DNA of 64,000 bases from a virus (lineage: Duplodnaviria; Caudoviricetes), in the IMG/VR virus record IMGVR_UViG_3300043372_000090, positions 2,655 to 66,654 of that record. One strand, written 5' to 3'. Positions 303 through 47,800 of this stretch are shown piece after piece. The notes beneath the pieces were generated by a model that was given only the letters and a program-made list of their open reading frames with translations, searched no databases and was not told the DNA's origin. Position 1 is the first letter of the stretch, and each line of letters begins with the position of its first letter. Made by a program: the position numbers and the translations under genes.

Positions 303-374
303 TTAAGCCTGACTCATCAGTGTGGGTAGGCTAATTCCCACAGACTTCTCCGCATGGGAGAAGTTTCGTCTTAA
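303..374 (-). ncRNA. hammerhead ribozyme HH1, type II (stem II open), with loop I pseudoknot
   Basis: Minus strand reads GAC-GAAA-CUUCUCC(CAUGC)GGAGAAG-UC^-UGUGGG(AAUUAGCCUA)CCCACA-CUGAUGA-GUC-AGGCU. Full core present; GUC cleavage predicted between 343 and 342. Confidence 0.92.
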
Positions 375-1637: not shown

Positions 1638-1696
1638 AACGTGTTTCGGCTTGACTGCCTCATCAGTCCATAGGAATCACCCTATGAATACACGTT
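1638..1696 (-). ncRNA. hammerhead ribozyme HH2, type III
   Basis: AACGUG-UA^-UUCAUAGG(GUGAUU)CCUAUGGA-CUGAUGA-GGC(AGUCAA)GCC-GAAA-CACGUU; canonical core; cleavage predicted 1689/1688; loops I and II are complementary. Confidence 0.93.
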
Positions 1697-2114: not shown

Positions 2115-2178
2115 TGTTACGTTTCGCCTGTAGACTGGCCTCGTCAGCTCATTGGCATCACCCAATGAGGACATAACA
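2115..2178 (-). ncRNA. hammerhead ribozyme HH3, type III, extra G after A9
   Basis: UGUUAUG-UC^-CUCAUUGG(GUGAUG)CCAAUGAG-CUGACGA-G-GCC(AGUCUACA)GGC-GAAA-CGUAACA; cleavage predicted 2170/2169. Confidence 0.88.
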
Positions 2179-2202
2179 AAATAAAGGGGGGCTTTCGCCC
2201 CC
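2177..2202 (-). terminator. intrinsic terminator-like hairpin abutting HH3
   Basis: GGGGGC-GAAA-GCCCCC followed by CUUUAUUUU on the minus strand. Confidence 0.7.
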
Positions 2203-2213
2203 ACATCCCGACA

Positions 2214-2495
2214 TCATCCCTTGGTGAAGGTGCAGTTGTCGTACTCGAACGTTGCAGGTGTACCATTCCAATGACGTGCAATCCAATACGCGCCTTCAAC
2301 GTCGATTGGCTTGATGGTGTGTGAACGACTTGCACATGCCAGCATCTTCAAGAGGTATGCGTCCGTCCAGTTGGACATCTGGTGTACGAATGTTTCACCA
2401 TCGTCAATGACGTATGGACCTTTAGTGGTTGTTAGCGTCCACGTAGCGACTTGATAGGGAACAGATTGTGTGTGTGTGTGTGTTGCGAATGACAT
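2214..2495 (-). CDS. hypothetical protein with an (AC)8 tract near the N-terminus
   Basis: ORF track start 2555 lies inside a terminator; ATG 2495 (MSFATHTHTQ) follows an AAGGA. Confidence 0.65.
   Translation of the reverse strand: MSFATHTHTQSVPYQVATWTLTTTKGPYVIDDGETFVHQMSNWTDAYLLKMLACASRSHTIKPIDVEGAYWIARHWNGTPATFEYDNCTFTKG
2467..2482. repeat. (TG)8 dinucleotide repeat
   Basis: tgtgtgtgtgtgtgtg read directly. Confidence 0.95.
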
Positions 2496-2527
2496 TGGCT
2501 CATTATCCTTTTGTTTTTTGTTTTCAG

Positions 2528-2563
2528 AAAAAAAGTGACACCCGGTGGATTGCACCGGGTGTC
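2528..2563 (-). terminator. intrinsic terminator
   Basis: 11-bp perfect stem GACACCCGGTG/CACCGGGTGTC, 5-nt loop, then AC-U7 on the minus strand. Confidence 0.85.
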
Positions 2564-2571
2564 TGGGGGGA

Positions 2572-2937
2572 CTATTCGTCCCCGTCTACACCCAACATAG
2601 CGGTTCCAAGGGCGTCTGCGGTGAGACCCTTGATGGATTGTGCGACAAAGTCGATATCCTTGCCGGTAGTATCCAATACAGGCGCGAGTTTAGCGGACAA
2701 TGTTGCCAGTACCGCTTTATAGTTATCAGGCGTGGTTTTACGACGCTTGATTCCTTGAATGTAGGCAGTTTCGACAGGTTGCAATACTTTGTTCGCTGTC
2801 GACTTCGACATGAGCATACCGATTGCAATGTGCGATTCTATCGCCGCGATTGCCTTAGAATATGCCGCCTGCGCGCCTGCGTAGACTGTTAGCGCGGGTT
2901 TTGATGCGGGTGTTGATGCGGGTGTTGATGTTGCCAT
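2572..2937 (-). CDS. hypothetical protein with N-terminal PAST/PASK repeats, first gene after HH4
   Basis: ATG 2937 follows GAAGGAA; the ORF-track extension to 3066 runs through the ribozyme and is unlikely to be translated. Confidence 0.75.
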   Translation of the reverse strand: MATSTPASTPASKPALTVYAGAQAAYSKAIAAIESHIAIGMLMSKSTANKVLQPVETAYIQGIKRRKTTPDNYKAVLATLSAKLAPVLDTTGKDIDFVAQSIKGLTADALGTAMLGVDGDE

Positions 2938-2959
2938 CGTTTTATGTTTCCTTCGTTTT

Positions 2960-3019
2960 GATGTTTCGGCTATAACCTGCCTTCGTCGGGCATTATCAGG
3001 TGAACGATAATACGACATC
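2960..3019 (-). ncRNA. hammerhead ribozyme HH4, type III variant (U4C core, extra A after A9)
   Basis: GAUG-UC^-GUAUUAUC(GUUCACCU)GAUAAUGC-CCGACGA-A-GGC(AGGUUAUA)GCC-GAAA-CAUC; cleavage predicted 3014/3013; loop ACCU is complementary to loop AGGU. Confidence 0.8.
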
Positions 3020-3275
3020 GGAATGGAAGAACGTAACCGAACGACCCCGGAGGGCGTCCACACCATGTATGTAGACCGGGATTTAGGGCACAGTCACGTG
3101 GGGTGGTGGGGTGGGGCTTAGACCCGGCATGGCAAGGGGGTGCCCCGGTTGGCACGGCACAGTAGTGACTCCAAACCATATATTCTCAGCTATCCTCTAT
3201 CTATTTCTCCCATCGGAGAAACTGTTTCTCCCCGTAGAAAATAGGTTCCATACGGTTTTGCTACACTTTGCACTA

Positions 3276-3284
3276 TGTTATACT
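3276..3284 (+). promoter_or_regulatory. extended -10 promoter (TGtTATACT), probably leaderless
   Basis: TGTTATACT followed by 7 nt and ATG 3292; no SD. Confidence 0.6.
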
Positions 3285-3291
3285 TTCGATT

Positions 3292-3825
3292 ATGGCTAAT
3301 CAATTTAAATCAGGTAAAGAAGCAGGTGGGTACTTATTTGATGTTGCTATCCGTAAGGGTAAGGCTGCTGCAAGGGATGAGTGGGAACGCATTGTGAGCA
3401 GCTTGCCTAAAGATCAAAAACAGGCTTTTATCGATGCGTCAATTGATATTTACGAACAAAAGCATATTAAAGAAAATGAGGGCTTAGGAGCGGCTAAGGT
3501 ACAGCGTTATCGTGAAAAAGCTGCCAAGAACATGCCAGTTGATTATGAAAAAGAGTTTGCTAAAAAACCAGAATCAAAACCAGTTGCAAAACCTACGCCT
3601 AAGCCAGCCGCAAAACCTGCAACTAAACCAGTTCCAATGGAAGATGAAAAAGGCTTTCGTCCATATGGAGGCGGTACAACCACTGGTAATACTGTACGCA
3701 AGTTGATTGATGTAAAAGCGGATAAGCCAGCTCCTAACAGTCGGCCAACAATTGGTACTGGTGCTGCAGGAATGCTAGATCTAAACGCACTTGCATTAAA
3801 ACCTAGTGGCAAGGCACCTAAATAA
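3292..3825 (+). CDS. hypothetical protein with K/P/A-rich linker (KPVAKPTPKPAAKPATKP)
   Basis: ORF track 3268..3825; ATG 3292 sits 7 nt after the -10 hexamer. Confidence 0.75.
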   Translation: MANQFKSGKEAGGYLFDVAIRKGKAAARDEWERIVSSLPKDQKQAFIDASIDIYEQKHIKENEGLGAAKVQRYREKAAKNMPVDYEKEFAKKPESKPVAKPTPKPAAKPATKPVPMEDEKGFRPYGGGTTTGNTVRKLIDVKADKPAPNSRPTIGTGAAGMLDLNALALKPSGKAPK

Positions 3826-3843
3826 GATATACTTACGGTATCT

Positions 3844-3915
3844 TCCTACTTAGCTCAGCGGTAGAGCATCCGGCTGTTAACCGGACGGTCGCTGGTTCGA
3901 TCCCAGCAGTAGGAG
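3844..3915 (+). tRNA. tRNA-Asn (GTT), CCA not encoded
   Basis: Acceptor TCCTACT/AGTAGGA, D arm GCTC..GAGC, anticodon stem TCCGG-CTGTTAA-CCGGA, T loop TTCGATC. Confidence 0.96.
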
Positions 3916-3938
3916 TATAATCGATGTGAGGTATAGAT

Positions 3939-4220
3939 ATGCATGAAGAAGGCAGACAATACAACACACCACAGCTGCAGAATAGGAATCGACGTAACGC
4001 AGAATATATCCGACATGGATTGAAAGAGGATCGTGATAAACGAGTTGAGGACATGGGAGCGCAAGCTAAACAGCATGCTGCTTATATAAATGTTATGAAC
4101 AAAACCAGTCCAGAAATCAAAGCTACTGTCAATAAACCTGTGTATACAAAGGTAAGTAACAAGCAAGCAGCAGAAGCCATGTCAGGTACATCGTATTCTA
4201 AGCTCCTCAAATTTAAATAG
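3939..4220 (+). CDS. hypothetical protein
   Basis: 93-aa ORF with TATAAT at 3916 and GAGGT SD. Confidence 0.7.
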   Translation: MHEEGRQYNTPQLQNRNRRNAEYIRHGLKEDRDKRVEDMGAQAKQHAAYINVMNKTSPEIKATVNKPVYTKVSNKQAAEAMSGTSYSKLLKFK

Positions 4221-4263
4221 ATTCCCCATGCATGTAAACGCACCGGGATGGTATAGTTAGATC

Positions 4264-4367
4264 GCCACCGAGAGGTGAGCTTTGAAAGGCCAGAAACCTC
4301 CTCTTCTTGCCCGACAAATTCTAACTCTGCAAACAATTAAGACCAGTCAGCCACGCTGGTCTTTTTT
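4264..4367 (+). ncRNA. candidate small RNA with anti-SD motif
   Basis: TGgTATAGT promoter at 4249-4257, 5' GNRA hairpin CACC-GAGA-GGTG, ACCTCCTCTTCTT segment, 3' terminator; no plausible ORF. Confidence 0.5.
4339..4367 (+). terminator. intrinsic terminator
   Basis: AAGACCAG/CTGGTCTT stem followed by a T tract. Confidence 0.8.
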
Positions 4368-4409
4368 GTTGTTATACTACAAACACCAGTTGATAGTAGG
4401 AGGCAGTCA

Positions 4410-5303
4410 ATGACAGTAATTGAATACATAACGGATCAAAGTCCATTTGTGCTGTGTTTGATGAGTGATCTACACATAGGTGGCTTACACGTAGATTACA
4501 AACTGATTGAAAAGGAATTAGCCGATGCAAAAAAGCGCGGAGCTAAGATACTTATTAATGGTGATGTATTCGACGCCATACTTCCCGGTGATCGCAAACG
4601 ATATCGCGCTAATAATCTTCACCCTCGTTTATACGACGCTGGAGACGATATGCTTGGCGAATCTATACGGTGGGCATATGAAATCCTAGCTCCATATAAA
4701 GATGACATTATTATGATTGGAGATGGAAATCATGATGATGCCGTCGCAAGATACCACCACATAGAGCCTGTTAAGCATTTAATCGTAATGCTAAATGGTG
4801 CTGACGGTAAGATTCAATATGGCGGATATCACGGCTTCATTCATGTACAACTGCGTCCTTTTAGCGACACTCATTACGGACACTACGTCATTCACTATCA
4901 CCACGGAGCCGGGGGCGCCGCGCCAGTAACTAAGGGCGCTATCACCTTTTCAAGGGCAGCTATGTGGATAGAAGGTGCAGACGCTATTTGGCGTGGGCAT
5001 ACACATCACAGGCAAGCTGGCAGGGACAACAAGGTAACGTTTAACAAGAGTGTTGTTGTGCCAGAGAACAGAGTGATGACACGAGATGTGCTTACACTGC
5101 GTACTGGATCATACTTTGACACATATGTAGGAACAACTAGCGAGCAGTTGTTAAAACATGGGCGTAGAGATTCATATGCTGCACTGTGGGATTCTCCCAC
5201 TCTCCCTAAAGGTGGACTTATGCTTACTTTAAATGCAGTCCATTCTAGGGACGTTCGCGGTAAAGGAAGTACAGTACTTGTTAAAGATACATTGGAGATG
5301 TAA
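4410..5303 (+). CDS. calcineurin-like metallophosphoesterase
   Basis: Motifs SDLH, NGDVFD, GNHD, HHG and GHTH in order; TGtTATACT promoter at 4370-4378; AGGAGG SD. Confidence 0.9.
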   Translation: MTVIEYITDQSPFVLCLMSDLHIGGLHVDYKLIEKELADAKKRGAKILINGDVFDAILPGDRKRYRANNLHPRLYDAGDDMLGESIRWAYEILAPYKDDIIMIGDGNHDDAVARYHHIEPVKHLIVMLNGADGKIQYGGYHGFIHVQLRPFSDTHYGHYVIHYHHGAGGAAPVTKGAITFSRAAMWIEGADAIWRGHTHHRQAGRDNKVTFNKSVVVPENRVMTRDVLTLRTGSYFDTYVGTTSEQLLKHGRRDSYAALWDSPTLPKGGLMLTLNAVHSRDVRGKGSTVLVKDTLEM

Positions 5304-5569
5304 TGACTATATTGCAAGCGTTTATTGTTGGTGTCGCAATAACATCGTTAGTGTTTTATGTCTATGACTACATTGCTGGGTACTTTGATTACCTGAAATT
5401 TAAAAAATGGTTGGTTGAAGTTGATGTAGACATCAGGTCATTAAGTGAATTAGACTTTGACAAGTACTTTGCAATGTGGGAAATAAGCAAATTACCAAAT
5501 ATAGTCATTGAGGAAGTAAAGGACAGGAGCAACGACAATGGCATCAGCGGAGAAAACGGATCCAAGTAA
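5303..5569 (+). CDS. small protein with N-terminal transmembrane helix
   Basis: ILQAFIVGVAITSLVFYVY hydrophobic stretch; TAATG overlap. Confidence 0.7.
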   Translation: MTILQAFIVGVAITSLVFYVYDYIAGYFDYLKFKKWLVEVDVDIRSLSELDFDKYFAMWEISKLPNIVIEEVKDRSNDNGISGENGSK

Positions 5570-5924
5570 GTGGAAAGCTATTGTCTCGCGAGTCAAATCA
5601 GGTACAAAGGGTGGAGATCCCGGCGAGTGGTCCGCCCGTAAAGCGCAACTTGCAACTCAACAGTATAAGAAGTCTGGTGGAGGCTATAAAGGCCCTAAAA
5701 CAAGCGACAATAGCCTAGCTAAATGGACAGATCAGAAGTGGAAAACCAGTGATGGGTCTCCCAGTGAAGGCAAAAAACGCTATCTCCCTGAAAAAGCGTG
5801 GGGTGCTTTATCATCCGGAGAAAAAGCTGCTACCAACCGTGCTAAAGCTGCAGGAAATAAAGCCGGAAAACAGTACGTAGCACAACCAAAATCAATTGCA
5901 CGTAAAACCCAAGGATATCGATAA
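5538..5924 (+). CDS. conserved basic phage protein (DUF5872-like)
   Basis: KGGDPGEWSARKAQL...YKKSGGGY and RYLPEKAW match a recurrent freshwater-phage family as recalled. Confidence 0.7.
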   Translation: MASAEKTDPSKWKAIVSRVKSGTKGGDPGEWSARKAQLATQQYKKSGGGYKGPKTSDNSLAKWTDQKWKTSDGSPSEGKKRYLPEKAWGALSSGEKAATNRAKAAGNKAGKQYVAQPKSIARKTQGYR

Positions 5925-5978: not shown

Positions 5979-6059
5979 CCCCAGTTGGTGGAATGGTAGA
6001 CACGACGGACTTAAAATCCGTTTCTGCAAAGAGTACAGGTTCGAGTCCCGTACTGGGGA
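5979..6059 (+). tRNA. tRNA-Leu (TAA), long variable arm, CCA not encoded
   Basis: Acceptor CCCCAGT/ACTGGGG, D arm GTG..CAC, anticodon stem ACGGA-CTTAAAA-TCCGT, T loop TTCGAGT. Confidence 0.93.
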
Positions 6060-6070
6060 TGGAGAAGAAT

Positions 6071-6703
6071 ATGGCAGCAACACTTAAGTACGTTCAACCC
6101 GATGCAGAAGAGTTTATGATTCACCTTGCCCGTGTTTCATCTGACAATGAAGACAACCCTGAATACGTAAGACTTTTACATTACTGTATGCGAGAAGGTC
6201 ATTGGTCTGTATTTGAAATGGTAGATGTTGTTATGGAAATCTACACATCAAGGGCTATTGCAGCACAAATCTTACGACATAGAAGTTTTCATTTTCAAGA
6301 ATTTAGCCAACGTTATGCTAATCCAAGTAAAATTGAGTTAGATCTTCCAGTAATGCGCCGTAAAGGTAGTAGTAATCGGCAAGGCAGTGTTATGTTTGAA
6401 GATCCTGAAACACAATACCAAATGGATAACAAAGCACTGGCTCCTGTGTTGGTTGCTATTCGAGCTTACGATGATCTTGTTAAATCTGGTGTGGCTTTAG
6501 AGTCAGCCCGAATGGTACTGCCACTGTGCGTCGGTACACGCCTGTACATGAAGGGTAATGTACGTGACTGGCTACATTACTGCCGAGTGCGAATGAGTGC
6601 TCATACGCAGCAAGAACACCGTGAGATTGCTAATGATTGCTGGAATGTGTTATGTAAAGTACTGCCTAACGCAACAGCAGCATTTAATGAGTACCACATG
6701 TAA
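6071..6703 (+). CDS. thyX: FAD-dependent thymidylate synthase
   Basis: HWSVFE and RHRSFHFQEFSQRY signature; ATG 6071 after GGAG (ORF-track extension overlaps the tRNA). Confidence 0.95.
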   Translation: MAATLKYVQPDAEEFMIHLARVSSDNEDNPEYVRLLHYCMREGHWSVFEMVDVVMEIYTSRAIAAQILRHRSFHFQEFSQRYANPSKIELDLPVMRRKGSSNRQGSVMFEDPETQYQMDNKALAPVLVAIRAYDDLVKSGVALESARMVLPLCVGTRLYMKGNVRDWLHYCRVRMSAHTQQEHREIANDCWNVLCKVLPNATAAFNEYHM

Positions 6704-9359: not shown

Positions 9360-12300
9360 ATGGCGTCATTACTGTCTAGTCTTATCATGGGTAATTCGGC
9401 TACTATGTCGGATAAAGATAAAGAGATACCAGCAGCACCTGCTGTTGGTGGTCCAGTGCCAACAACACAAGCACAGCAGCCACAACAACAACCTCTTCCA
9501 TCTATACCGCCAATGGCTAACCCACAGCCACAGACTACACAACCAGCGCCAGTAAAGCCACAAGGTATGCCCGGATTGCCTAGTCTTCCGGGTTTACCTC
9601 AAATGGGTGGTTTTAACTACGATCCAATGGCAGCTCTATCTAAGGGATTAGTAGATATGCCTAACGCATCAGGAGCAGGTCTCAGTACCCGTATTGATGT
9701 GGGTGGATTAGATAACGCAAGCGCACAAAAACATGCAGTTGGATTAGACATGTTTTTGCGATCAAGTAGCACTGGTAAAGTTGCATCTGGTTCTGAGTTA
9801 ATTACTAAAATGCAATCATGGCTTGGCAAAGCTACTGGTGCAAAGGATCAAACTGCAGGAACAAATAGAACCGATGTAATTGGTGACGATAAGTTTTTAC
9901 AGTTAGTCAATAAGACAGCAGAGTTATACAACACTGGTGATCCAACTAAGCGAAAGATGGCAGATGCATACGCTAACGGTGTTATGTATTTAACAACTGC
10001 TTATTCTAGGAATGATGATGCTGGTGTTTCTGGTGCAAAAGATTATCTTGAAACACTCGTTGATTATACGGATGAAGATTTTCGAGATCCTAAAACCCAA
10101 ACGTATTTAGCTCGACAGGCAGCATCTGTTATCAAGCCATATGTAACTAATAAGTCACTTGTGCAACTTGATAAAGAAAAAGCAGAAGTAAGCCCAGAAA
10201 CCGTACGAAAAAAACTTATTGGTAATGTTCTTTATGATTATGTACAAGGACGGTTTACTGAACTTAGATCAGATGCACAATCTGGATCACCTACGGCTAA
10301 TAATGCACGTAAGACATTAAACATATTTGAATCTGCATACGGTGATTTATCAAAACCAACTATTGAAGGAAATAAAGATAGACAAGTCCAGATGTTTATG
10401 GACTCACCTCAAGGGCAAGCGTTAATTGACGATGCTTATGAGCAGTTTGATGGTCAAGGTTTATTCAATACAAAAAAAGCCCAAGACTTATTAAAACGAA
10501 TGGGTGGACAAGTTCGTGGAGAACAAGGCCAAGGTGAGATTGATCCAGCTACGCAGGTTACTCCACAAGAATTAAAAGACTTCTTTGGACAGACACGTAT
10601 GAAGCGATACGTATCTGGCGCAATGAATATTGATCCATCATTAAGCGATGAAGCAGCTTCACGATTTGATCCAAATAATCCAGATAATGATGAAGTATAT
10701 TCTGCATTAACACCCGGTGGTGTAAAAGCTTTATATGGTCAAAAGGACGGAGCATTAGTAGGCGATATGTTCCGTGCAGGTAAGGAAGATCCTTACATGT
10801 ATGACATAAGCTCTAATGTATCTGGAAGTCAAACGCAATCACCGCAAGCTATTACTGGCGCAAACAGTGGACGAATTACATCTCGTGCTGAGCTTGCTGG
10901 GTCAATGGCTTCAGGTTTAAACCTTAGTGAAGCACAATTAGAACAGGTAGGACGTAAGTTATTCTCAAGCATTGACGATGTAAATGATTTTGTAACTGCT
11001 GGTATGAATAGTTACGATATTGAATCAGATATTCTACCTAAGATTACTTCAGACATTAGTTCTGTACGTGCAGGTAAAACAGGTGGCCTTGCAACAGGTG
11101 GCACATCAAAAGGTACATACAACTTAATCACTGATACTTTTAAGGCTGTAGATGCTGTTATTCCCGGTGGTGCACAGCAATCATCATGGATGAGTAAGAA
11201 GCGTGTACTCAATGATATTGCTGTGCAAGCTCGTAACTTAGAAGGCACCGCAGTTGAGCAGTCTGGTTTATCGTTTGCTAAATTACCTACGGGTGAAAAT
11301 GATTTTAACCAACCAATATTGCCAGTGCGTTCAGACCAGATTAGTCGCATCCAAGTTTTGCAGGGCATGTTTGATTATGCTGGTAAAAATGCTAGATACC
11401 GTACTGATCTACAAAATCTAATTAAAAGTGCAATAGACAAAGTTCCGTACAACGGAAACATAAAGATGACTCCATCGCAGATGTCATCGTTAGTTGGTTT
11501 ATATGCTTCACGTTTAGAAGACGCTACATATGCAAATTCAAATACTGATGAAGTCTTTCAGTCAATGTTTGGCATCAAAGCAAGTGACTACAGCAAAAAA
11601 GATTTAAGAGCCAAGATATTAAAATCACTACAAACAGGAACACCATCAAGATTTAAAGCACTTGCATCTACAATGCAAGTGACACCTGAAGGTGGAACAA
11701 GACTTATACCTACAACTACTGCTGGAACAGTAATAGATAATGCATCTGCAATACCCGGAGGTACTGGGGCTGTAGGTGGTCGTTCAAGTAAAACTGAGAG
11801 GACAGCACTCGATAGAGTACAGCGAAGCATGGATATTGTAAATACAATATTTAGCGACGCAAAAAAATCAATCCTTGGTTACACAAACAGTGTTGGCGAA
11901 CAAGTAGCTGGTGGCGAAGCACCAAAGGGTAACTTTAAAACTGAAGTCCTAAACGCATTCGATAATTCAATCAAGTCATCATTAGCTCAATTCAATATTA
12001 ATCCACAAGACAAAGTTAAGTTTGACAGTATGATCTCTAACATTAGGGAGCAGCTTGCAGAATCCGCAACTACGGAATGGATGAAGGGCACAGTCTCTGA
12101 CGCCGACATTGATGGTGTTTTTCAAAAGTATCGCCCATCAATGACTTCTATTTCTGCGCAGTATGCAGGTCGAGAAGATACAGATGTGGCCTCGCGACTT
12201 AAACCTTCTGAATCTACAAACCAAGTTCAAATTGATTCTGGTAAAAAAATCTACAATGATGCTGTTGCAGCATTAGGTGGTGAGATTGGTGGTAGTGAAA

Positions 12301-15300
12301 AGGCTGGTGATACAAAACAAATTGAAACAGTTTTGTCTGCAAAAATTGCAGCAGCTGAAAAAGCTAACAACTATGACTATGTAGAATTTACAAAACGTTG
12401 GTATGCAAATACAACAAAATCACTTGATGCAGCAAAGCGTGATGCAGATATACAAGCAGCTGTTGTAAAAAATGCTGATGCAGATATTGTTAAATTACAA
12501 GAAGCTAAGGCAAAAACTGGACAGACACCAGAAGGTTTGAAAAAAATTGATCGAGCAATTGCTGCATTAGAGCGAAAAAAAATTCAGGCAAAACAAAAGG
12601 GAACAGATGCACTTTCATTATTGCAAAGTCGCATGTATGATCTTGCCTATAATAGTCCTACAGAGGAATCTTACAGTAAAATATTAGATGACCGTAATTC
12701 TGAAACAAAAGCCAATGAGGCTATAAGCGGACGCTATAGAGATATTAGAGCGCGAGTTCGTGATAAAGGATTTGACAGCTTATCTTTAAGTGATAAACAA
12801 TTTTATTACGAGCAAAGTCTACAGCGTTACCGAGAAGGTGAATCAAACACTATAGGTGTAGGTCGGCCTACGCGTTTAGGATTTAATAGTTTTCTTGCAA
12901 GTGCACAAGGTGTCAACTGGACTGTTGTAAATCCAGAATATGAATTGATTGACGATAACGCAAGAGCACCAGCATATTTAGTAGAAGTAAAAGATGACAA
13001 AGGAAAAACTATAGGTCACAAGTTAAATGAAAATGTCAAATTTGCATTTGAATGGAAAAAGGATGCAAAGACAGGTCGTTTTACTGACGTAACAATCGTA
13101 GCTAGTGAGTATATAAAACAAGGTAATAATAGTCAGCGCACATTACGTAAACAAAAAATTGAAACTGGTTTAGAGACTGCAATCTACAAAGCAAAGAATT
13201 TTGAAGTAGATTTAAATGCATCTTTAAAAGTTCTTGACAGCACAACCACAGGTAAGACATACGGTGGTATTACTAATGGCACGAGAGTAAATAGAGGTGC
13301 ATCTAAGTTATCTGGTGCGGTTCGCGATTTACTTGATCTTACGTCTCAAGAAAATCTTAATGCTGCAAACCAAAATAACGTCAAACAATTAAAAGCTGCA
13401 GTGCTGCAAGGTTTAAAAGATTCTGGAAGAGCTAACCCAGAAGAGTATCTTAAAAACTTAATTGAAAGCAACAAGAGTAGTAAGGCTTTACTAAACTTTG
13501 CTGACACATTACGTGTGAAGATGTCAGATCGTATTGACGCATTTGCTGGTAAGGGCACTGGTCGCGTACGTACACCTCAAGAAATTCAAGATGATATTTC
13601 TAATTTTTTTAATACGACTGAAATGTCTGCCGAGGATACTGCAAAAATACGTAATGAAAAAGCTGCGTTCTTACAAAAATTTGGCTTTGACGTAAAAGAA
13701 GTAACAGACGCAGATGGTAACAAGGTTCCAAAAACATTACCTAATGATGCAGTTGGCGAGGTAATTTCAATACTTGACTCAAAAGGTAAAGTATCACTTA
13801 CTACACAAAAAGAAGATATAGCATCTTTGCGTAATGCTGTTTTTCAAAAACTACGACCGTTGCAAGAAAAGTTACAGAAAGAAGTAGATGGACTAAGTCA
13901 AGGTGATTCAGGTCGTATTGCAAAAATAGCTGAAGCTAAAAAGTTATCAGGACTTGCTGGAAAGTTAAATGCTGCGACATCTGAAGGTGAATTGACTGGT
14001 GCACTTTTAGAATTTAATACAACTAACAAGGTAATAAAATCAGCTCAGGCAGTTGCGCGTGATTGGCGTACAAGAAAAGATTTACCGTTAACTGATGTTT
14101 ACTCCCAATATAAATCACTTAAAGATAAAGCCACAGATGGAAACATATCGGACGTTGAAAGTAAACGATTAGACACACTTACTTTAGTTTTAAATAAACA
14201 TCTTAAATCTGTTGCTCCAGAACTAGGTGCAAAACCATTGTTTGAATTAAACAGGATTGACAAACTAAATAGTCAAGAATCCGGTGTTTACAATCAGGCA
14301 AATGCAGCTAAAGATAAAGTTCCATTCCAAGTACTGTTTGGTGAATCAGCTAAGAGGATAGAACGAACTAACTTACCTACGGTATACATGAGTCCAGAAG
14401 ATCAACGAAAGGCTTTTCAACAGTGGAATAAAAAATTATCTACTAACGATAAAAAGCGTTTGGCACGAGAAGTTGAGATTGCACAAATAATAGGCTTAGA
14501 TGTAGATGCTACGAAAGCAAAGCTTGGTGACTTGTGGAGATCTGTCAATAACAAGTGGCAATCAATGAACGCCAAGGAATGGGTCGAATACACTTACGGC
14601 TTACCTGATGAAGCACGGCAATATCTATTACAAGAGTATCCGTTCCAATCACAAGAACTAATGCCTAATGAATTAGGTGATGACTCAGGGCTTACACGCC
14701 AAGAAATAAATAAACGATTAAAAGATAGTGTTTCACTAACATTGACTCCGGGTGGGCATGTTGTTCCAGCTAAAAATACATTTACATTAAGCGCCCCACA
14801 ATTTGTAAAAGAAAATAGATTACCAAGTAAACCAAGATACGCAGAATCGTTACAATGGAAAATTAACAACTCAGCTGTTGAATATCTTGATGTGTTAGTT
14901 GAAAATTCAAATGATTACCGTTACGAGGTAAAGGGGCCTGATGGAAAAATATTAAAAAATCAGACTGCTAATACATTTACAACTGAACCAGATGGTAAGT
15001 CTAGAATATTAAAAAAAGGATATAAGGTTTTAGGTGCAACTGTTACGTCAGTAGATGCTGATGGCAATAAAGAAACAAAAGACGTACCTATTTCCGAAAA
15101 ATATAGAATTGGTGGAAAGCAAGTTGATGTACCTATATACAACAGGGGTGCGTTTTTGCAGTCACGGATGTTACAACCCGGATTTGACGTAGATCTAATT
15201 GATCAAAAATTAATTAAAAAAGAACCTATTGTAAAACGCCTTACATTTGAATCGGCTCCAGTTCAAGAGGGTAATCGACTAGGTTTTGAGTATGAAGGTA

Positions 15301-15689
15301 AACAGTTCTGGATTGGTAGGAGTGATTACTTGGATTTTGTAAAGCAGGTAAATGAAGGAAAAGTTGACCGAAAAAATGTACGTGAATTAGTTACTGCACT
15401 TGTTTCTCGTGTGCGAGCAAGTAAAAAATCTGGTGAAGGGGAAGTATATACTACTGTAAGTGCAAAGTCGATAAGTAAAGATAATGCCAAAGCTATTGAA
15501 GGAATCAAGATTCCAGAAGATATCCAAAATCAAATTATTGCTGACGCAGAAGCTAAAGGTTTTGGTGGGTTAATTGGAAAAGCTAAAAGAATGAGTTTTG
15601 CTGGTGTACTGCTCTTAGCCTTAAAGGAATACGGTAAACAGGCAATACGATCATTTGGCCAAGAGGAGTCTAAGAAAAATGGAAAATGA
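9360..15689 (+). CDS. giant 2109-aa protein of unknown function, possibly an internal virion/ejection protein
   Basis: Uninterrupted ORF; P/Q-rich disordered N-terminus, helical K/A/D/E-rich body; no catalytic motif recognised. Confidence 0.85.
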   Translation: MASLLSSLIMGNSATMSDKDKEIPAAPAVGGPVPTTQAQQPQQQPLPSIPPMANPQPQTTQPAPVKPQGMPGLPSLPGLPQMGGFNYDPMAALSKGLVDMPNASGAGLSTRIDVGGLDNASAQKHAVGLDMFLRSSSTGKVASGSELITKMQSWLGKATGAKDQTAGTNRTDVIGDDKFLQLVNKTAELYNTGDPTKRKMADAYANGVMYLTTAYSRNDDAGVSGAKDYLETLVDYTDEDFRDPKTQTYLARQAASVIKPYVTNKSLVQLDKEKAEVSPETVRKKLIGNVLYDYVQGRFTELRSDAQSGSPTANNARKTLNIFESAYGDLSKPTIEGNKDRQVQMFMDSPQGQALIDDAYEQFDGQGLFNTKKAQDLLKRMGGQVRGEQGQGEIDPATQVTPQELKDFFGQTRMKRYVSGAMNIDPSLSDEAASRFDPNNPDNDEVYSALTPGGVKALYGQKDGALVGDMFRAGKEDPYMYDISSNVSGSQTQSPQAITGANSGRITSRAELAGSMASGLNLSEAQLEQVGRKLFSSIDDVNDFVTAGMNSYDIESDILPKITSDISSVRAGKTGGLATGGTSKGTYNLITDTFKAVDAVIPGGAQQSSWMSKKRVLNDIAVQARNLEGTAVEQSGLSFAKLPTGENDFNQPILPVRSDQISRIQVLQGMFDYAGKNARYRTDLQNLIKSAIDKVPYNGNIKMTPSQMSSLVGLYASRLEDATYANSNTDEVFQSMFGIKASDYSKKDLRAKILKSLQTGTPSRFKALASTMQVTPEGGTRLIPTTTAGTVIDNASAIPGGTGAVGGRSSKTERTALDRVQRSMDIVNTIFSDAKKSILGYTNSVGEQVAGGEAPKGNFKTEVLNAFDNSIKSSLAQFNINPQDKVKFDSMISNIREQLAESATTEWMKGTVSDADIDGVFQKYRPSMTSISAQYAGREDTDVASRLKPSESTNQVQIDSGKKIYNDAVAALGGEIGGSEKAGDTKQIETVLSAKIAAAEKANNYDYVEFTKRWYANTTKSLDAAKRDADIQAAVVKNADADIVKLQEAKAKTGQTPEGLKKIDRAIAALERKKIQAKQKGTDALSLLQSRMYDLAYNSPTEESYSKILDDRNSETKANEAISGRYRDIRARVRDKGFDSLSLSDKQFYYEQSLQRYREGESNTIGVGRPTRLGFNSFLASAQGVNWTVVNPEYELIDDNARAPAYLVEVKDDKGKTIGHKLNENVKFAFEWKKDAKTGRFTDVTIVASEYIKQGNNSQRTLRKQKIETGLETAIYKAKNFEVDLNASLKVLDSTTTGKTYGGITNGTRVNRGASKLSGAVRDLLDLTSQENLNAANQNNVKQLKAAVLQGLKDSGRANPEEYLKNLIESNKSSKALLNFADTLRVKMSDRIDAFAGKGTGRVRTPQEIQDDISNFFNTTEMSAEDTAKIRNEKAAFLQKFGFDVKEVTDADGNKVPKTLPNDAVGEVISILDSKGKVSLTTQKEDIASLRNAVFQKLRPLQEKLQKEVDGLSQGDSGRIAKIAEAKKLSGLAGKLNAATSEGELTGALLEFNTTNKVIKSAQAVARDWRTRKDLPLTDVYSQYKSLKDKATDGNISDVESKRLDTLTLVLNKHLKSVAPELGAKPLFELNRIDKLNSQESGVYNQANAAKDKVPFQVLFGESAKRIERTNLPTVYMSPEDQRKAFQQWNKKLSTNDKKRLAREVEIAQIIGLDVDATKAKLGDLWRSVNNKWQSMNAKEWVEYTYGLPDEARQYLLQEYPFQSQELMPNELGDDSGLTRQEINKRLKDSVSLTLTPGGHVVPAKNTFTLSAPQFVKENRLPSKPRYAESLQWKINNSAVEYLDVLVENSNDYRYEVKGPDGKILKNQTANTFTTEPDGKSRILKKGYKVLGATVTSVDADGNKETKDVPISEKYRIGGKQVDVPIYNRGAFLQSRMLQPGFDVDLIDQKLIKKEPIVKRLTFESAPVQEGNRLGFEYEGKQFWIGRSDYLDFVKQVNEGKVDRKNVRELVTALVSRVRASKKSGEGEVYTTVSAKSISKDNAKAIEGIKIPEDIQNQIIADAEAKGFGGLIGKAKRMSFAGVLLLALKEYGKQAIRSFGQEESKKNGK

Positions 15690-38881: not shown

Positions 38882-41800
38882 ATGCCTCAAACAAACCAAA
38901 ACCGTAATCGCAGCCTTAGTGATTCGTATTGGCGCAAAAGATATGCGGACGCTGGCGTTGTAAAAAAACCGGGTGGTGGTGTAACAGTTACAAGACCTAG
39001 CTTACGAATTGGTTATGATAACAATCAGGAAAAAACAGATTGGTTAAAAAACAACTACGAACCTATTGCAAAGGCTATTGAATCTGGTGACTCACGCGTT
39101 ATCAGTAGTCAAGTTACGGATGTGGCTCGTTATGGATTACAGCAAGGCTTATTAACTCAAAAACAGGCTAGTTATATTTTTGACAATGTGACTAAATTCC
39201 GCAAGGCATTATCTGCACCAGTCACTATGGGTGGTAAGCCTGTTCCATTTACACGCCTTGGACAAACTGGTGCTCCCGGTAATGTTGGTGAAGTTCAAGA
39301 CACTCTTAAACATTCAGATTTAATTCGTTACAACAGCGATGGGTCATGGCAATATGACCCTTTTAATCCTAATCAAACAATTCGTGCTAATGCTTCACGG
39401 CAAAAACAAATGATTGCTGATGCACCAAAAGGTGCTTCTACAGATTTAGCTGCAGTAGGACTTGGAATATTTGCAGCAAAACCTTTACGTGTAGCAAAAG
39501 ACTTTGGCTACAATCCCACCTTTGATGAAAACACATTTTTTGGACGAGTGGGTAAAGCTGCTGAAGGTATTGAAGCTGGTGTTGAAACAGCACTTCCTAA
39601 TCTTATGTCCGGTATTAGTAACCGCACTAGATATGGAATGTCTAGATTGTATGGACGTACACCAGAAGAAGCTGAAGCAGACGCAGCAGCATTAACTAGT
39701 GAAACACCTTGGTATCAATTTTCAAATCAAGTACTTGAGCCAGCACAGACAAGTCCAAACTTCCAGATTGGTTCTGTTCTTGGCCAAGAGGCCGTTACTG
39801 CAATACCTGCTTTGTACACTAGCCTTGGTTTACTTAATGCATCTGCCTCACTTGGTGGACGCATGCTTGCTCCGCTTGGCACACAGGCTTCTAACGTAGG
39901 ACGATATGGAGGTATTGCTGCAGCCGTTGCAGCACCACCAACTATTACTGCGTTTCGCGATCAACTGACAGGTGGTAAGTCTGGAGTTTCAGAAGACGTT
40001 GTTTCTGGTATTGAAACCATCATGGATCCTATTCGATCTATGCAACAACGTGGTGTTACTGAATCTCAATCTATCGGACAACAAGAGTTTGATCCTAATA
40101 ATGTTTACGGTCAGGCTGCACAAAAAGCTGCGTTGATTGGACTCGCTAGTGGTGGCGCCAAGGAAATGTGGCGTGATGTCAAAGACAATGCATCAAAGGG
40201 TATGTGGGCTTTCCGTGGTTCTTTAAAAGAGACTGGTAATCCTTTTGTTGCTGCTAAAAGTGGTATTGCTGCGTCAGTTGAAACCGAACTTGGCAAAGCA
40301 GCTGCAGCTGACTTAGGATTTGCGTTAACTCAACCACTTGGTGATATTGGTAGATTAGTATATTCACAAACACGCCTTGATAAAACAAAACCATATCAAA
40401 CACCAAAACCTGAAGAGTTACTTGTTGATACATTAATGGGACTTGTTGCAAGTCGGCCCGGTAAAAATGCCCAGTGGATATTCCGTGGTAATCCATTAGA
40501 GCGACTTGAACCAAAGACAATGGCACTGGCATCGGCTGCTGACATAGTCAACGCTAAAACTCCTGAGATAACAAACTTACGTAAACGATTTGAGCAGTTA
40601 CGTGGGCCTGATGTAAAGCCGAATGAAGCAGACCTCAGACGTGTTGCAAGTGCAATTGCAAAAGAGAATCAATCTAATTTAGATGTCTTGTCTAGAATGG
40701 AAACATTACCTGATGGTGTTACCGTGCATCGGACAACAGATGAACACGTTAAAGCATATGTAGACGAGCCAGATACTATTGGTGCTGATGTTCGATCTCG
40801 CTACGATAATTTACTTGAGAATGTACGAGCTGATAATGAGCGCATTGATATTGATGATGATAATCCATTAAACAAAATTGAAATGCTGGACAATTATAAA
40901 AATGACCTATTCTCAAGGCGCCGACGCATTAATGAATTAGCTAAGGCAATGTTGCCTGAATACAAAAAAATGTTTGACGCGATGAAATCTGGCAAACAAC
41001 CCGTTAAGACTGATGCCAACTTCTATGGAATAGATCGTGGTGATGGCACCATGTTGGTATATAACCGTGATTTTACATCGCAAAAAATTATTCCAACTGG
41101 CGAATACAGCGACATTGAAATGTTGCGTCCTAATAGGCAGCCACGTTCTGAAACTGTAGATCTGACACCTGAACGTCGTGAACTTCATCGTTCAATTGTT
41201 GGAATGCGTGAAAACAGCGTAACTATTAATGGCATTGATATGGTTCCGTTTGGTTTTTCAAAAGATGGAATCATACTTAAAGATGGCGCTAGTAATCTTG
41301 TACGTTATACATACGACATGCTTATAGAAGAAGCTCGTAAAGCTGGTGCTGCAGGTAAATCTGAATTAGAAAACGAATTAAACAACCTTGCCGAAAACGC
41401 TAAAAGAATAAGAGACAGTGAATCACTACAAGATCAACGAAGAACTAATTCTAGAACAGTAAGTGACGGACGTTTTTCGATTGATCTTCCAGATGTCAAT
41501 GATGATATACAGGCTCGTGTTATTGATAAAGTTAACGGATTTGCAATCTTGCAGTCATCTGCTGGTGATTACTTTATTGTTCCTGCAGATCAAGTATCCA
41601 GTGTAAATGTTGAGAAGGAAATTTTAAATCCACTTGACTCTGATTATGATAATACAAATGGAAGATTAGTAATACATTTACCAGACATGGATACTGGTGA
41701 AACATATCCATTTGAAATTCGGTTATCACCAGATCAAGTAGAAGTTCTTTCTCGTGAAGGTGTACCACCAGATGCACGTGCGTTTTTGCAAGAAGCATTA

Positions 41801-44800
41801 TTAACTGCAAACGCATTTACTCGTGACATTGGAGATATTGTTACTATAGATACGGTTAATCCGTGGCGTGGAGAATCTTCATCTAGTAAATATGTAATTG
41901 TAAGTAAGTCTTCTGATCATGGAATCGCTATTCCAATTGATAATCCTGCTGGTACTGCAGTGATGTTATTTGATCATCCTGAATTAAAAGTTCAGAGGGC
42001 AAACACTGAATTTCTACTGAACGAATTAAATCAATCACGGCGCATTTCTGGTTTTGATCCAGCAACAGTGCGACCTACTGATGATCCAGTTGGAAACATT
42101 TTTAAATATGCGTTCTGGTTGTCTGCTAAAAACACAGGTGATACGCAACCTGTGCGATTAATTCCAGCCATTATGGACGCTACGGCTGTTGAATTACCTA
42201 CCGTTTTACATCAACACATTCTTGATAATCTTGATGACACAGGCGTTATACAAAATGTAGTTGGCAGTATGCGTGAATGGTTGACCAAGAATCCTGAATC
42301 AGCTGGTGATTTTGAATTTATAGTTAACCGTGCACTGTCTACAGAGCTTACTAAATCGTCTGAAGATATGAGTGTAATGGCTATTGGTCATCTATCTTCT
42401 ATTGCACATAACGCTGACCTCAATGATCTTGTAGATATTTTAATTGGTGGTTATGATTCAGATCGCCCTGTTGGTGGTGAAACATTCTTTAGTTCTAGCC
42501 CTAGACGCATTGGACGTGCTCAGGGTGAATTTCAGATTATGTTGTCTGCCGTAAACATGATTAACACTTTTATACGTAGGAAAGGACGTATGAGTGAGGA
42601 TCGTTTGAACAACATGATTGCAAACTTCCTTGGAAAACATCCAGCATTTGAAGGCAATCTAGAAAACACTGTTACTACAATCAAACGTCTATTACAGTTA
42701 TCTAGTTCAATAAACCATTTAGCCTATGGTGTTATTAGTGAAAAAGGCGCCATCTGGATGATGGAAAAGTTATCTGTATTACCACATGAAGTACAGGTGC
42801 TATCAGCATTACTTCCATTTGAAGGTATGTCTGATGCTTACATTGCTGATTTTGGTAATTGGCATACTTCTAAAACTGCATATGATTCATCTGTTTCCCG
42901 TGCCAGAGAATTATATGCTGAGGCTGCAACTCGTGGTGAAGCAGGTATTGAAGACTTACGCAACTCAATGTACGACGCTCGTTTAGGATATTTCTTTGAA
43001 GTGGCTGCTGGTGGTAACGAAATTATTAGCCGTCGCGCCAATGTGAACATTACGGATGCTACTGCTGTTGATGTTATTCGCGCTAATGCTCAACGTGCTA
43101 ACAATGCAGTTGGAGAAATGATTAAGCGTGTTGCTACTGCTAAACTTGCAGTTTTGACTAAGCGATTACAGGACAATCAAAGTTCACCTGATTCATCTGT
43201 TCCTGTACGACTTGATGAAATTGCAACATCAGCTATGCTCGCAGCTCCAGATGGTGTTCTCCATCCAGAGCAAATGTATGATCAACAAGGTATTGCTGCA
43301 GCTTTAGACAATCTACCCGCTATGATTGAGCTTGTAGGTAACGTTCGTACCTATATGGATGACGTTTCTACAAGCTCAGTTCTACCCGGTGTGACTGTTA
43401 ATTCAGTTGAAGATGCTTTGGTTGGTGCTCATCAATTACAGACAGCACAATTAGCACATGAGGAAAGACAACAGTTAAATGCTGCATTAGATGCCTTTGC
43501 TGCTTTACCAGAAAAAGCACGTGACATAGTAGCTGGACTTTCATCTCCGTTGCTTTGGTTTGTGGATGTAGTAAAGGCTGTAGAAAAATCTGGTGACAAC
43601 AATATACGTGAGTCATTGATTTTTGCTTTAGTAAATGCACAAGGTACTGATGGAAGCTCTTTAATACCTTTTACTCTGAACAAATTATTTAGGTCACAAG
43701 AAGATTTTAATAAGTTCAATGATCACGCAACTGTACTTGCAAGTAAATTAAACAGTGGAGACCCACAGCGGTTAACTTCAATTCGCGGCGCTATGGATCA
43801 ACTATTACAGTTAGTTGACACAATGGTTTCTAAAAACGCAGATCCACTTGAACCTGATGTTTCATTGCTTGATGATGCAATAAATTACTACAGTTCACAG
43901 CAAATACAACCAGCGTACATAAAGACGTTTATTGAATTTGCATCAAAAGAATTAATTACATCGTTAATTAAAAACGCAACACGTGTATCTCCGGATGCAG
44001 CAGCTGACGTACTTGGTAGCATTAACAATTACGTAGCTTCCAATAGAGAACGTATACGTCGAGCTGGTGTATTTATTGGTGAGCGTTCTTCTATTGCAGA
44101 GGCAATGCAAATTGTAGAGACTGCATCTACTGACGGACTTAAATATCTCGGCGTAACTTTTGATGGATCACGACGTAGGTTGATTCAGGACTCCGTCCAA
44201 TCATTAATCAACAACATGAATGCACGTCGCATCGAAGGCAGTTCTATAAAGCAAGCTGAGATGCTGCTCCAAGATGCCAAGACCATGGCTGCTGAGATTG
44301 CTGACTTTGTTTTAGGTGATAAGGGATTAGAAATTGGACAAGACCCTGCAGTTGCTTATACACCTGCTGTCGAAGTTCAATCAGCAAGTCTTATTGATGC
44401 ATTAAAACAAGGTATGCAGTTTGTTCGCACTGGAGAATCACCACAAACACAACCATTACTTATGGCTGGTAACCGTGCTGGCCTTGAAAAGATTATCCTA
44501 ACAACATTATTAGATGCGGCAAGTAAAGCCGAGTTAGATTACGCTGACGTTGACAAAGCATTAATGGAAGCGGTAGTCGGACCAGATGTAGCCCGACGTT
44601 ATTTTGAGCGTGTAAAACAAGAGGACTACGTAAAACGCAAAGTTGTATTTGAAAAAGATCCTGTTATGCGAGCTGCTATTATTCCGGGTATTGATGGTCA
44701 GTACACACTGCCTAGTGGTACAGCAAAAACAGAACTTGTAGAAGGTCAAGCTTTATTTAATAACTACGTCACAAAGATGTTGAATTTAATCAAGCCTCGC

Positions 44801-47800
44801 GACAAACAGAAGTTTATGGATGCATTGTCTAACTACGTAGACACAAAACGCACTGAGAGTGGAGATCAGCAATTTGTGTTTACTATGTCTGACCTTATGG
44901 CAATTGCAGAAGGCTTCAATGAAACACGTGGTGTTTTATTTAGGTCATCTGGAGATGCGTCAGAGTTCTCTTTTGGTGTAACAAATAAAGATAGCCACAA
45001 TGCTGCGTACAAAGTTAAGTCTCGTATTGCATCTATTGTTAGAGATGTTACTCAGCCATCTACTCAAAATAGATTTAGTCTTTCTGATCAATTTACAAAC
45101 CTTGGTGACACTGCAAGTTTTGTAGATAATTTTGAAGCGGTTGACATCTATCAACAGTTACCAGATGATTCTGTAACTATGAATGATGCAGAGGCACTAA
45201 CAACTCTGTATACACAGATGTCAAAAGATGCATCTTACACTGATAGCCAACAACAACAGTTTTCATCGTTAGCAAAAAACTATCGCGCAATGTCCCGTCG
45301 CAAAGATGATTCACCGACGAAGATTATTAATCGATATGCTGATGCGCGAGTTGTTGCAAGTAACCTAGCAAAAGTTTATGACACATACGCTGCTCGTATG
45401 TCTACTAAGAAAATTAGTACAGACTTAGAGTACAACTATGACATTGATGAGTACAAAGCACTAGCATCATTGCTAGGTGTGGACATGCTTACAATGTCTA
45501 AGGTTTTAGAATCGACAAATGTAAAACAAATTTTTACTGAAGAGATTCTTGACCGAGATCAACAAAGGCAACTTGTTGCTTTACGAGCAGCTCAACTTAA
45601 GCAAGACTTCTATAATCAACACCACAAATTATTTTTTGCACATGAATCTATGATGTCAGAGATGGGATACAGCCGTGTCCAATCTGGCAATGATGTCAAT
45701 GGATTTATAACACGCACTAAAATTGCTAATGCTGCATCATCAATTTTATTTATGGCAGCTTCAAAGAATTTTGGTAAAAGCGCATTAACAATGGCGCACG
45801 AGGTAAGTCATCACCTTTACTTTGCATTACCAGATACACAACAACTTAAATGGTTAAAGGCTGTTATGCCACCACTTGGTCGCAAGAAAGATGAAAGCGT
45901 TACACCTGAAGAAGAGCTGGTAAATGCTTTTATAAACAAGCAGACTAAACGACTGAATGAGTTCTCACGATTAGATGATGAGAACAACTTTAGAATGCAG
46001 AGTATAGAGGACTTTGCTGCAGCAGAAGGTGGCTTTAACGAACAACAAATTTATAACGCAAAGATGATTATTGGAGAAACAACCGCTACAAGTATGATGA
46101 ACTTTATACTTCAGAGTGGTGTGGTTCACAATCCAAATGATCGATTATCTGTTGCTGAAGACTTGACTAGTTCACTCATTAACTTACAACGTGTCCTTGC
46201 ACCTATTGCAAAGACATTGAGTAGTGAATACGGACCGTATGCAATGGTTGGTGGTAAACCCACAAACGTATTCTATTATTCTCCATCAGCTGTTTTAGTT
46301 AAAACCCCTAGCGTTATGGGTGTGAATCGACAGTTCTACCCTCTTAAGCATGGATCTTTTGTACATTTCATAAATGATGTCGGTAAGAAGTTTTCTACTG
46401 CCACGAATGTTATTGACATCCATGACGTGATTATGTCAAACAAGAATTTAATTAGTGATGGTGGACGAGATGCGTTAGTTAAGGTTCTCGACAACGTAAT
46501 TAAGGACAGGGATGTCGTTAATGAAATCGCGGACAAGTTAGTTACTCTTAGTAAAATGAGAGACCCGTCTGGTAATAAATTTGAATACGGAAAACAGTAC
46601 CGACTTAGCTTAAGTGGAAACGAAAAGTTTATAAAACAAGATAAAAATACAGCAGATGAGCAAGGTTACCCTGTTACTGGTCAAGTTGTTGGCATAGCTC
46701 GTGAACGTGTAACTGCTGGTTTAAGCGTTGATCCCTTTAAAGTCAATGGTAAAGATTGGTTTGTAAGTAGTCGCAAAAAGAGCGACGGTACACAGTGGTA
46801 TGGATTAGGCATAGTCGATATGGCAAACGGCATACGGCGTATGGTGCAAAGTCAAACACGCGGTGACTATGGTTATGTTGTTGAAAGTACTGCACAAATT
46901 CGTTTGCATACACTGTATGAAGGCAAGGATGTTGACCTTGGTGTAAACAAGATAGCCAAATTAGATGTTCCAATCAGATACATCGTTGGTCACAACTACA
47001 TAGATGGAAGTCGAAACTTCCATATGGTTGGTTCTGGAGATGGTGGTAATCCATCATTTATGTCTGTTCTATACAACATGCTTGCAAAGATTGACCAGAA
47101 TGTACTAAACATTGCTGGCCAAAGAACTTACGAGTATGAGCTGCGTGTCAATGATGCTCTTGCTGAAGCAATGCGTACAGGAGACTACACTAAGTGGGAC
47201 AAAGTTGTTTCTGCTCCGTTAGCGATGTCGCTAGATAAAGATATTGCAAACATAGTAGCAAGAACACCAGTTGCAGACATCCGTGCTGTACAGCAAACAG
47301 GTACGCACCCATGGTTACGGAATCAAAGTCACTCACGTAATCTGTATCGATGGGCACGAAACATTAAGGATGATGGCCGTAGGTCTACAGCATTAGGTTT
47401 AATAGATCGGATTACTGAAGCACATGCCTATACAGTAGGTAACTCTATGGCTGGAGACAGCAGGTTATCATTTACCGAACGACTTGGAAATGTAATCCGT
47501 GCTGGTAAAGGATGGTATTCATTCGTTCCATTTAGTGCTGATAAGCTTGCTAAGAATGGTATTGCTCCGATAGCAAATGCTGTGTTTGAACAATCATTCA
47601 GGTCTTATGAAGATTTAGAAAAGTTCTATAACGAACTGGTTAATGCAAGAGCAGAACTATTTTCTGACCCAACGGCTACAAGTCTTATCAGTGTTATGAA
47701 TAAAACTACTGCACTTGTTCCTGTTGGTGAAGCAGGTGCTGTAAATCCACGTTCATTTTTAATTAACGTTGATGGTGTTACTGTTGACGCCAGTGTTTAT

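Follow-up and report, generated by a model that had tools for sequence, protein, structure and literature searches.

Hammerhead ribozymes that flank prophage genes have been described, several of which cleave in vitro, and it was proposed that they cut long transcripts into gene-length RNAs (PMC3088659). The biological role of bacterial and phage hammerheads has been called largely elusive (PMC6765202). Natural departures from the consensus core are also on record. An intergenic hammerhead of phage Bcep176 carries an A6C substitution and has lowered activity with Mg2+ (PMC3088659; PMC7151607), and the section of PMC3088659 that summarizes Ambros and Flores (1998) relates that a viroid U4C variant, although considerably less active in vitro, is active enough in vivo. 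A recent survey writes the core motif as CYGANGA (PMC13481778).

The window analyzed here is a stretch of 64,000 nucleotides, corresponding to bases 2655-66654 of a 66,654-bp phage genome in IMG/VR, which is complete, carries direct terminal repeats and comes from freshwater metagenomes. Its portal protein is at best 21-27% identical to that of cultured phages, the nearest of which are actinobacterial, and a blastn search of positions 2400-3400 of the window against cultured phages gave no match. Genes at 1-2937 are read leftward (minus strand), and genes from about 3292 are read rightward. The 354-nt divergent intergenic region between them, directly upstream of the first leftward gene, is the site of an RNA element that we call HH4. 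Its position at the head of the leftward arm, in the 5' leader of gene 2572-2937, is as an initial annotation had given it. HH4 is best read as a working hammerhead with a recurrent phage core variant, for which cleavage is predicted. The features of the element and of the gene that follows it are these:

2960..3019, minus strand: HH4, a complete type III hammerhead with stem III open (descriptor match, reading, minimum-energy fold and covariation among orthologs)
3014, minus strand: C17, the predicted cleavage site, with the cut between 3014 and 3013 after a GUC triplet (placed from the A15.1(2964)-U16.1(3015) pair)
2990..3013, minus strand: stem I hairpin of 8-9 bp (3013-3005 with 2998-2990) with loop I GUUCACCU; 100% of cells paired
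2983..2989, minus strand: core strand CCGACGA, with C4 at 2988 in place of consensus U4 (sequence reading)
2982, minus strand: inserted A between A9 and G10.1 (sequence reading)
2968..2981, minus strand: stem II, GGC/GCC (2981-2979 with 2970-2968), with loop II AGGUUAUA (sequence reading)
2960..2967, minus strand: G12-A13-A14 (2967-2965) and the 3' strand of stem III, ACAUC (2964-2960) (sequence reading)
2954-2948 and 2937-2935, minus strand: Shine-Dalgarno sequence (SD) GAAGGAA and ATG of gene 1 (sequence reading)
2572..2937, minus strand: gene 1 of the arm, encoding 121 aa; in relatives, the ribozyme precedes homologs whose identity ranges from 70% down to 27%
2537..2563, minus strand: terminator-like hairpin and U run after gene 1 (from sequence)

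Three helices meet at the junction, stems I and II closed by loops and stem III open, which is the type III topology. Stem III is completed by its 5' strand GAUGU (3019-3015), and stem I is formed by GUAUUAUC(G), the loop UUCACC and (U)GAUAAUGC. G12-A13-A14, the A15.1-U16.1 pair and a position 17 other than G are all present (2967-2964, U3015, C3014), as is the C3-G8 tertiary pair. Six of the seven letters of the strict core C3-U4-G5-A6-N7-G8-A9 fit, and the C at position 4 agrees with the broader CYGANGA. The pair G10.1-C11.1 is found as G2981-C2968, with A2982 intervening between it and A9. Thus, the double variant that had been annotated, C4 plus an extra A within three intact stems, is borne out by reading, by descriptor and by folding. 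The annotated span of 2945-3030 is wider than the ribozyme proper (2960-3019), and its remainder consists of the SD and a supposed anti-SD. The annotated contact between ACCU of loop I (3001-2998) and AGGU of loop II (2978-2975) is likewise present as complementary sequence, and three of its four pairs, ACC 2999-3001 with GGU 2975-2977, are conserved, in keeping with a tertiary contact between the loops. The same three-way junction is the minimum-energy structure (RNAfold), the energy alone being unremarkable (z = -0.8). As had been anticipated, a strict CUGANGA search misses HH4. Rfam misses it as well: no hammerhead model, including RF00008, reaches the gathering score, and a cutoff of E<=10, applied to the whole window or to the 101 nt from 2940 to 3040, likewise gives no match to HH4. 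Because both kinds of search overlook this form, current counts of phage ribozymes are underestimates.

HH4 resembles the phage and prophage clusters (types II and III) of Perreault et al. 2011 (PMC3088659; RF00008, RF02276) in its three-way junction, its Watson-Crick loop-loop contact (many of those ribozymes have a pseudoknot between loops I and II), its type III topology and its occurrence as one of several copies among small co-directional phage genes. Unlike those clusters, it carries C4 and a nucleotide after A9, goes unscored by Rfam models, and stands at a transcript head, where it is preceded by a conserved leader and not by another gene. It has the same position-4 substitution as the viroid U4C variant, as far as that variant is summarized in PMC3088659. 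The initial annotation had supposed that HH4 may be slower or conditionally active, an idea whose basis is this viroid precedent. HH4 lies in an mRNA leader of a DNA phage, unlike the viroid, which is an RNA replicon. We know of no post-A9 insertion that accompanies the viroid U4C variant. The (+) hammerhead of CChMVd, which De la Pena and Flores are said to have described in 2001, is reportedly a natural, active type III ribozyme with an extra A between A9 and G10.1. HH4 would share that extra A; in contrast to the viroid ribozyme with its canonical U4, it has C4, and the inserted nucleotide in phages is mostly U. The Bcep176 A6C ribozyme is, like HH4, a natural intergenic phage hammerhead with a core substitution, and it is a precedent for changed metal preference. 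The changes in HH4 are at positions 4 and 9a, unlike that at A6, and a preference for Mn2+ is established only for A6C.

An exact 27-mer of HH4 has no match in IMG/VR. Relatives were found in three ways. The closest, L002/L005, was found by way of the downstream protein (70% identity by blastp, 73% over the best tblastn segment) and carries the same four ribozymes in the same order as the window phage. A search pattern in which any letter was allowed at position 4, at N7 and for the inserted base retrieved L003, L004 (identical to L006, L008 and L009) and L007 from IMG/VR. This pattern fixed G5, A6, G8, A9, stem II, loop II and GAAA, and therefore the invariance of those parts in L003, L004 and L007 is uninformative. 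Two more phages, L264 and L265, were found through an invariant motif 150 nt upstream, independently of the ribozyme. The only unbiased relatives are thus L002/L005, L264 and L265.

C4 is kept in L003, L004, L005 and L007, in which N7 is C or U. All seven orthologs have an inserted nucleotide, A or U, and all seven have C at position 17 and retain G12-A13-A14 and A15.1-U16.1. When five orthologs are aligned without gaps, 92.7% of cells fall in pairs, versus 31-41% when partners are slid, and nine pairs are changed on both sides, four of them in stem I, which is fully paired, and five in stem III. Freshwater runs X4 and X5 (DNA contigs) add two further relatives with no change at 2981-2989.

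The hammerhead at the same site in L265 (7717-7811) has the core CUGACGA+U, that is, the canonical U4 with an inserted U. That in L264 (1234-1298, minus strand) has UUGAUAA+U, in which U3-A8 replaces C3-G8, with a stem II of GAC/GUC (one compensatory change), a two-part stem I and a three-way junction as its minimum-energy fold. The C3-G8 pair is accordingly C-G in six orthologs and U-A in L264. Covariation of this kind has been described in natural hammerheads (PMC3088659). A compensatory change of this sort is hard to understand unless selection acts on the active site. The loop-loop contact also covaries: loop I ACC faces loop II GGU in five orthologs, and the two are swapped to GGU/ACC in L264 and L265, so that the pairs are AU/CG/CG in five sequences versus GC/UA(/UA) in the other two. 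Judged by these comparisons, the site holds a hammerhead in every relative, in three core forms that are known or plausibly active, all with the insertion.

The initial annotation had allowed that HH4 might be decaying, and had suggested a relaxed-core search in related phages, where a variant that was not conserved would point to a degenerate copy. The variant is conserved. Four related phages and two freshwater runs retain both C4 and the insertion, together with compensatory stem changes, and the reading as a decaying copy is therefore rejected. The comparative evidence indicates that HH4 is a real, evolutionarily maintained hammerhead whose odd core letters are a recurring natural variant, and HH4 thereby makes the case that a supposedly crippling U4C is maintained by selection. 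The downstream protein of ~115 aa has meanwhile diverged to 27-37% identity while the ribozyme persists.

In L265, the ribozyme is directly followed by ACGUCAGUG, which can base-pair with the 3' strand of stem I plus the core, CACUGACG. This pairing wins in the minimum-energy structure and could represent an alternative fold that sequesters the core.

The frequency of C4 was estimated from IMG/VR scans in which stem II was fixed as GGC-N8-GCC and candidates then had to pass our own stem I/III test; the scans thus describe one stem II class. Among the matches listed, at least 50 distinct candidates have an insertion, 43 with U4 and 7 with C4, and at least 72 distinct candidates lack one, all with U4. 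The association of C4 with the insertion among these matches gives Fisher p = 0.0015 overall and p = 0.017 for type III alone, on counts that come from our own descriptor and are partly non-independent (related sequences, such as three in L052). A4 and G4 served as an internal false-positive control: among the matches listed, 0/24 raw matches with an insertion and 0/12 without passed the stem test, and the pattern-seeded candidates that did pass have either U or C there. A complete scan for C4 with an insertion gave 46 raw matches and 12 distinct passing candidates, all type III; the HH4 family accounts for four of these and other lineages for eight. The complete C4 scan without an insertion gave 18 raw matches and 2 distinct passing candidates, both type I. 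When all hammerheads in the fetched loci were counted, unconstrained by the pattern, C4 occurred in 5/28 with an insertion versus 2/67 without (p = 0.022); the 28 comprise C4 and U4 forms only, and one A4 form with very long loops that also passed is probably a false positive. The inserted base is U (43) or A (7) among the IMG/VR candidates listed. The other hammerheads with C4 and an insertion have close flanking ORFs on the same strand, according to an ORF-overlap test on contigs that are GC-rich.

By these counts, C4 is a recurrent phage variant and is about 5-10 times commoner in insertion-bearing hammerheads, within the one stem II class. The double variant annotated as rare is therefore rare only in relative terms; the same combination recurs in other phages. 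C4 and the inserted nucleotide are apparently a linked natural variant. A stronger proposal is that the two are functionally coupled and define a distinct core subclass, widespread among phages but unseen by Rfam, in which the A9/G10.1 metal site is reshaped by the insertion so that C4 becomes tolerable or useful; as a whole this is a conjecture that we rate as unlikely. The hint behind it is that U4C goes together with an insertion at that site, where the A9 phosphate and G10.1 N7 bind a metal (PMC7151607). Metal use or rate could conceivably be affected, because the insertion lies at this site and A6C shifts metal preference (PMC7151607). A literature search found no description of a coupling between C4 and the insertion. 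If the proposal were true, kinetics or metal dependence would be altered, and phages could use this to time or tune how the first early mRNA is freed of its leader. Such cores would form a natural series of graded or condition-dependent self-cleaving modules, of interest to RNA enzymologists and to builders of RiboJ-type insulators. If it were false, HH4 would be one more phage hammerhead.

Two IMG/VR contigs, L052 and L120, carry several hammerheads close together in which U4 and C4 cores are mixed. L052 has three copies with C4 and an insertion, and L120 has CUGACGA+U and CCGAUGA+U side by side.

HH4 opens a series of four intergenic hammerheads along the leftward arm and has no gene upstream of it. 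A descriptor that specifies C-N-G-A-N-G-A, 0 or 1 inserted nucleotide, GAAA, any of the three topologies and minimal stems of 4/3/3 bp was run on both strands of the 66.6-kb genome. It produced exactly four matches, all on the minus strand, intergenic and within 2.7 kb (genome positions 2965 to 5673), versus a chance level of 0.32 matches per genome in 60 dinucleotide shuffles. The other three are as follows:

2115..2178, minus strand: HH3, type III, CUGACGA with an inserted G (descriptor; kept in L002 at 4712-4771)
1638..1696, minus strand: HH2, type III, canonical core (descriptor; weak Rfam match of 24.4 bits)
311..370, minus strand: HH1, type II, canonical core (descriptor)

The inserted G of HH3, which is conserved in L002, occupies the same spot between A9 and G10.1 as the inserted A of HH4. 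Each ribozyme of the arm ends roughly 10-30 nt ahead of the next start codon. In all relatives, AAGGA lies 8-14 nt ahead of the ATG of the gene that follows HH4.

Several features of the arm near these ribozymes may be recorded separately. A second strong terminator-like hairpin with a U run (2187-2202, minus strand) adjoins the 5' strand of HH3 stem III. The listed GTG start of the second gene, at 2555, falls inside the terminator hairpin at 2537-2563, and the ATG at 2495-2493 is for this reason the likelier start. It is preceded by an SD, AAGGA, at ~2506-2510, and a run of CA dinucleotides (~2467-2486, minus strand) begins just past it.

HH4 is probably a functional self-cleaving type III hammerhead, with C4 and the insertion as a natural core variant, that trims the leader of the first leftward mRNA during transcription. 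The orientation of the genes suggests that HH4 is transcribed, and it would be made as part of the leftward early transcript and fold as it emerges, its active shape being held by the 3-bp Watson-Crick contact between loop I and loop II. A cut after C3014 would release a conserved 5' leader of ~150-250 nt that carries a 2',3'-cyclic phosphate at its 3' end. The new 5' end of the first mRNA would bear a 5'-OH and the hairpin of stem I, and would lie ~60 nt ahead of the SD and 76 nt ahead of the ATG. A 5'-OH and a 5' hairpin should guard a bacterial RNA from 5'-end-dependent RNases and insulate its ribosome-binding site; the cut may thus affect mRNA stability or translation. Together with HH3, HH2 and HH1, HH4 would split the arm into RNAs of one or two genes, with 5' ends protected by hairpins and insulated from upstream sequence. 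HH4 and gene 1 may be largely a unit of their own because of the terminator-like hairpin that follows the gene (2563-2537).

The leader that would be removed coincides with a second conserved element, located as follows:

3036..3260, minus strand: conserved non-coding block, presumed leader and/or promoter (from an alignment of five phages plus L264 and L265)
Corresponding block in relatives: L005 3440-3660; L004 950-1166; L003 2593-2810; L007 5530-5742; also present in L264 and L265

This block of ~230 nt is the best conserved DNA of the locus in the seven phages, far above the flanking genes. It contains a hairpin (3039-3059), a GC-rich stretch, an invariant 28-mer (3167-3194) that is unique in the window, and two TTTCTCC-N4-GGAGAAA inverted repeats (3204-3221 and 3225-3240). 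It adjoins the ribozyme in all relatives, so that HH4 is tied not to any one gene but to a leader that is non-coding and strongly conserved. A coding reading of the leader was considered and rejected. An ORF runs through 2970-3179, and an ATG at 3066 is in frame with gene 1, but the window and L005 differ by a 1-nt indel that disrupts the frame of this sole ORF through the block, and the ribozyme stems covary as RNA. The block is on that account non-coding.

These properties bear on another reading, in which the ribozyme mainly serves the RNA upstream of it, by giving a leader RNA of ~150-250 nt with a function of its own a precise 3' end (a 2',3'-cyclic phosphate), and mRNA trimming is secondary. 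This reading is compatible with cleavage that trims the mRNA, and both may hold; as the main purpose of HH4 it is possible, on the lesser side of probability. In its favor, the non-coding block is far better conserved in seven phages than the gene downstream, and it stays beside the ribozyme in all of them. However, the RNA fold of the block (RNAalifold) shows little covariation, with an unfavorable covariation term and only the hairpin 3039-3059 well kept, and the block has no match to any Rfam family. Moreover, it lies between divergent genes and may equally be promoter or operator DNA, a reading to which the two inverted repeats point. Thus, the block may be promoter/operator DNA, or RNA whose 3' end HH4 makes.

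The initial annotation had noted that UUCCAUUC, upstream of HH4, is nearly complementary to the SD GAAGGAA, and had supposed that cleavage exposes the SD. The segment concerned is:

3021..3031, minus strand: proposed anti-SD UUCUUCCAUUC (pairs with the SD in the minimum-energy fold of the precursor; no better than shuffles and not conserved)

As a switch, UUCUUCC(A)UUC would pair with the SD before the cut, and cleavage would free the SD and turn on translation of gene 1. Both sequences are indeed present, a 6-bp helix of UUCUUC with GAAGGA extends stem III in the minimum-energy structure of a 138-nt precursor, and the closest relative, L005, has a similar complementarity of UUCCCUUU with AAAAGGAA. 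The pairing energy is nevertheless no better than that of shuffled controls: in the window, the duplex of the 30 nt upstream with the SD region is matched by 30% of shuffles. None of the relatives stands out in this respect either, and a UCC-type anti-SD is absent from L003, L004 and L007. Unmasking of the SD would therefore be surprising at this locus, and the annotated exposure of the SD by cleavage is not upheld.

That HH4 is an inactive relic or a purely structural element of the 5' UTR, its fold kept as a stabilizing cluster of hairpins around a C4 core that no longer cuts, is highly improbable. In its favor, few core positions are as well conserved as U4, U4C is described as less active in vitro (PMC3088659), and no Rfam model recognizes HH4. 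Against it, the variant is conserved rather than scattered, each core form seen among the orthologs is one that is known to be active or would be expected to be, C17, the A15.1-U16.1 pair and the contact between the loops persist, and C is the sole non-U letter at position 4 among the pattern-seeded, stem-passing candidates listed.

Searches of PHROGs and Pfam assigned no family or function to gene 1, to the other small proteins of the arm or to two giant ORFs on the plus strand, 9360-15689 (2109 aa) and 38882-51664 (4260 aa). Two tRNA genes, tRNA-Asn(GUU) at 3843-3916 and tRNA-Leu(UAA) at 5979-6059 (plus strand), are among the first genes of the rightward arm. The tRNA-Leu gene overlaps the listed start of a thymidylate synthase ORF (5993-6703), whose family match begins at residue 24.
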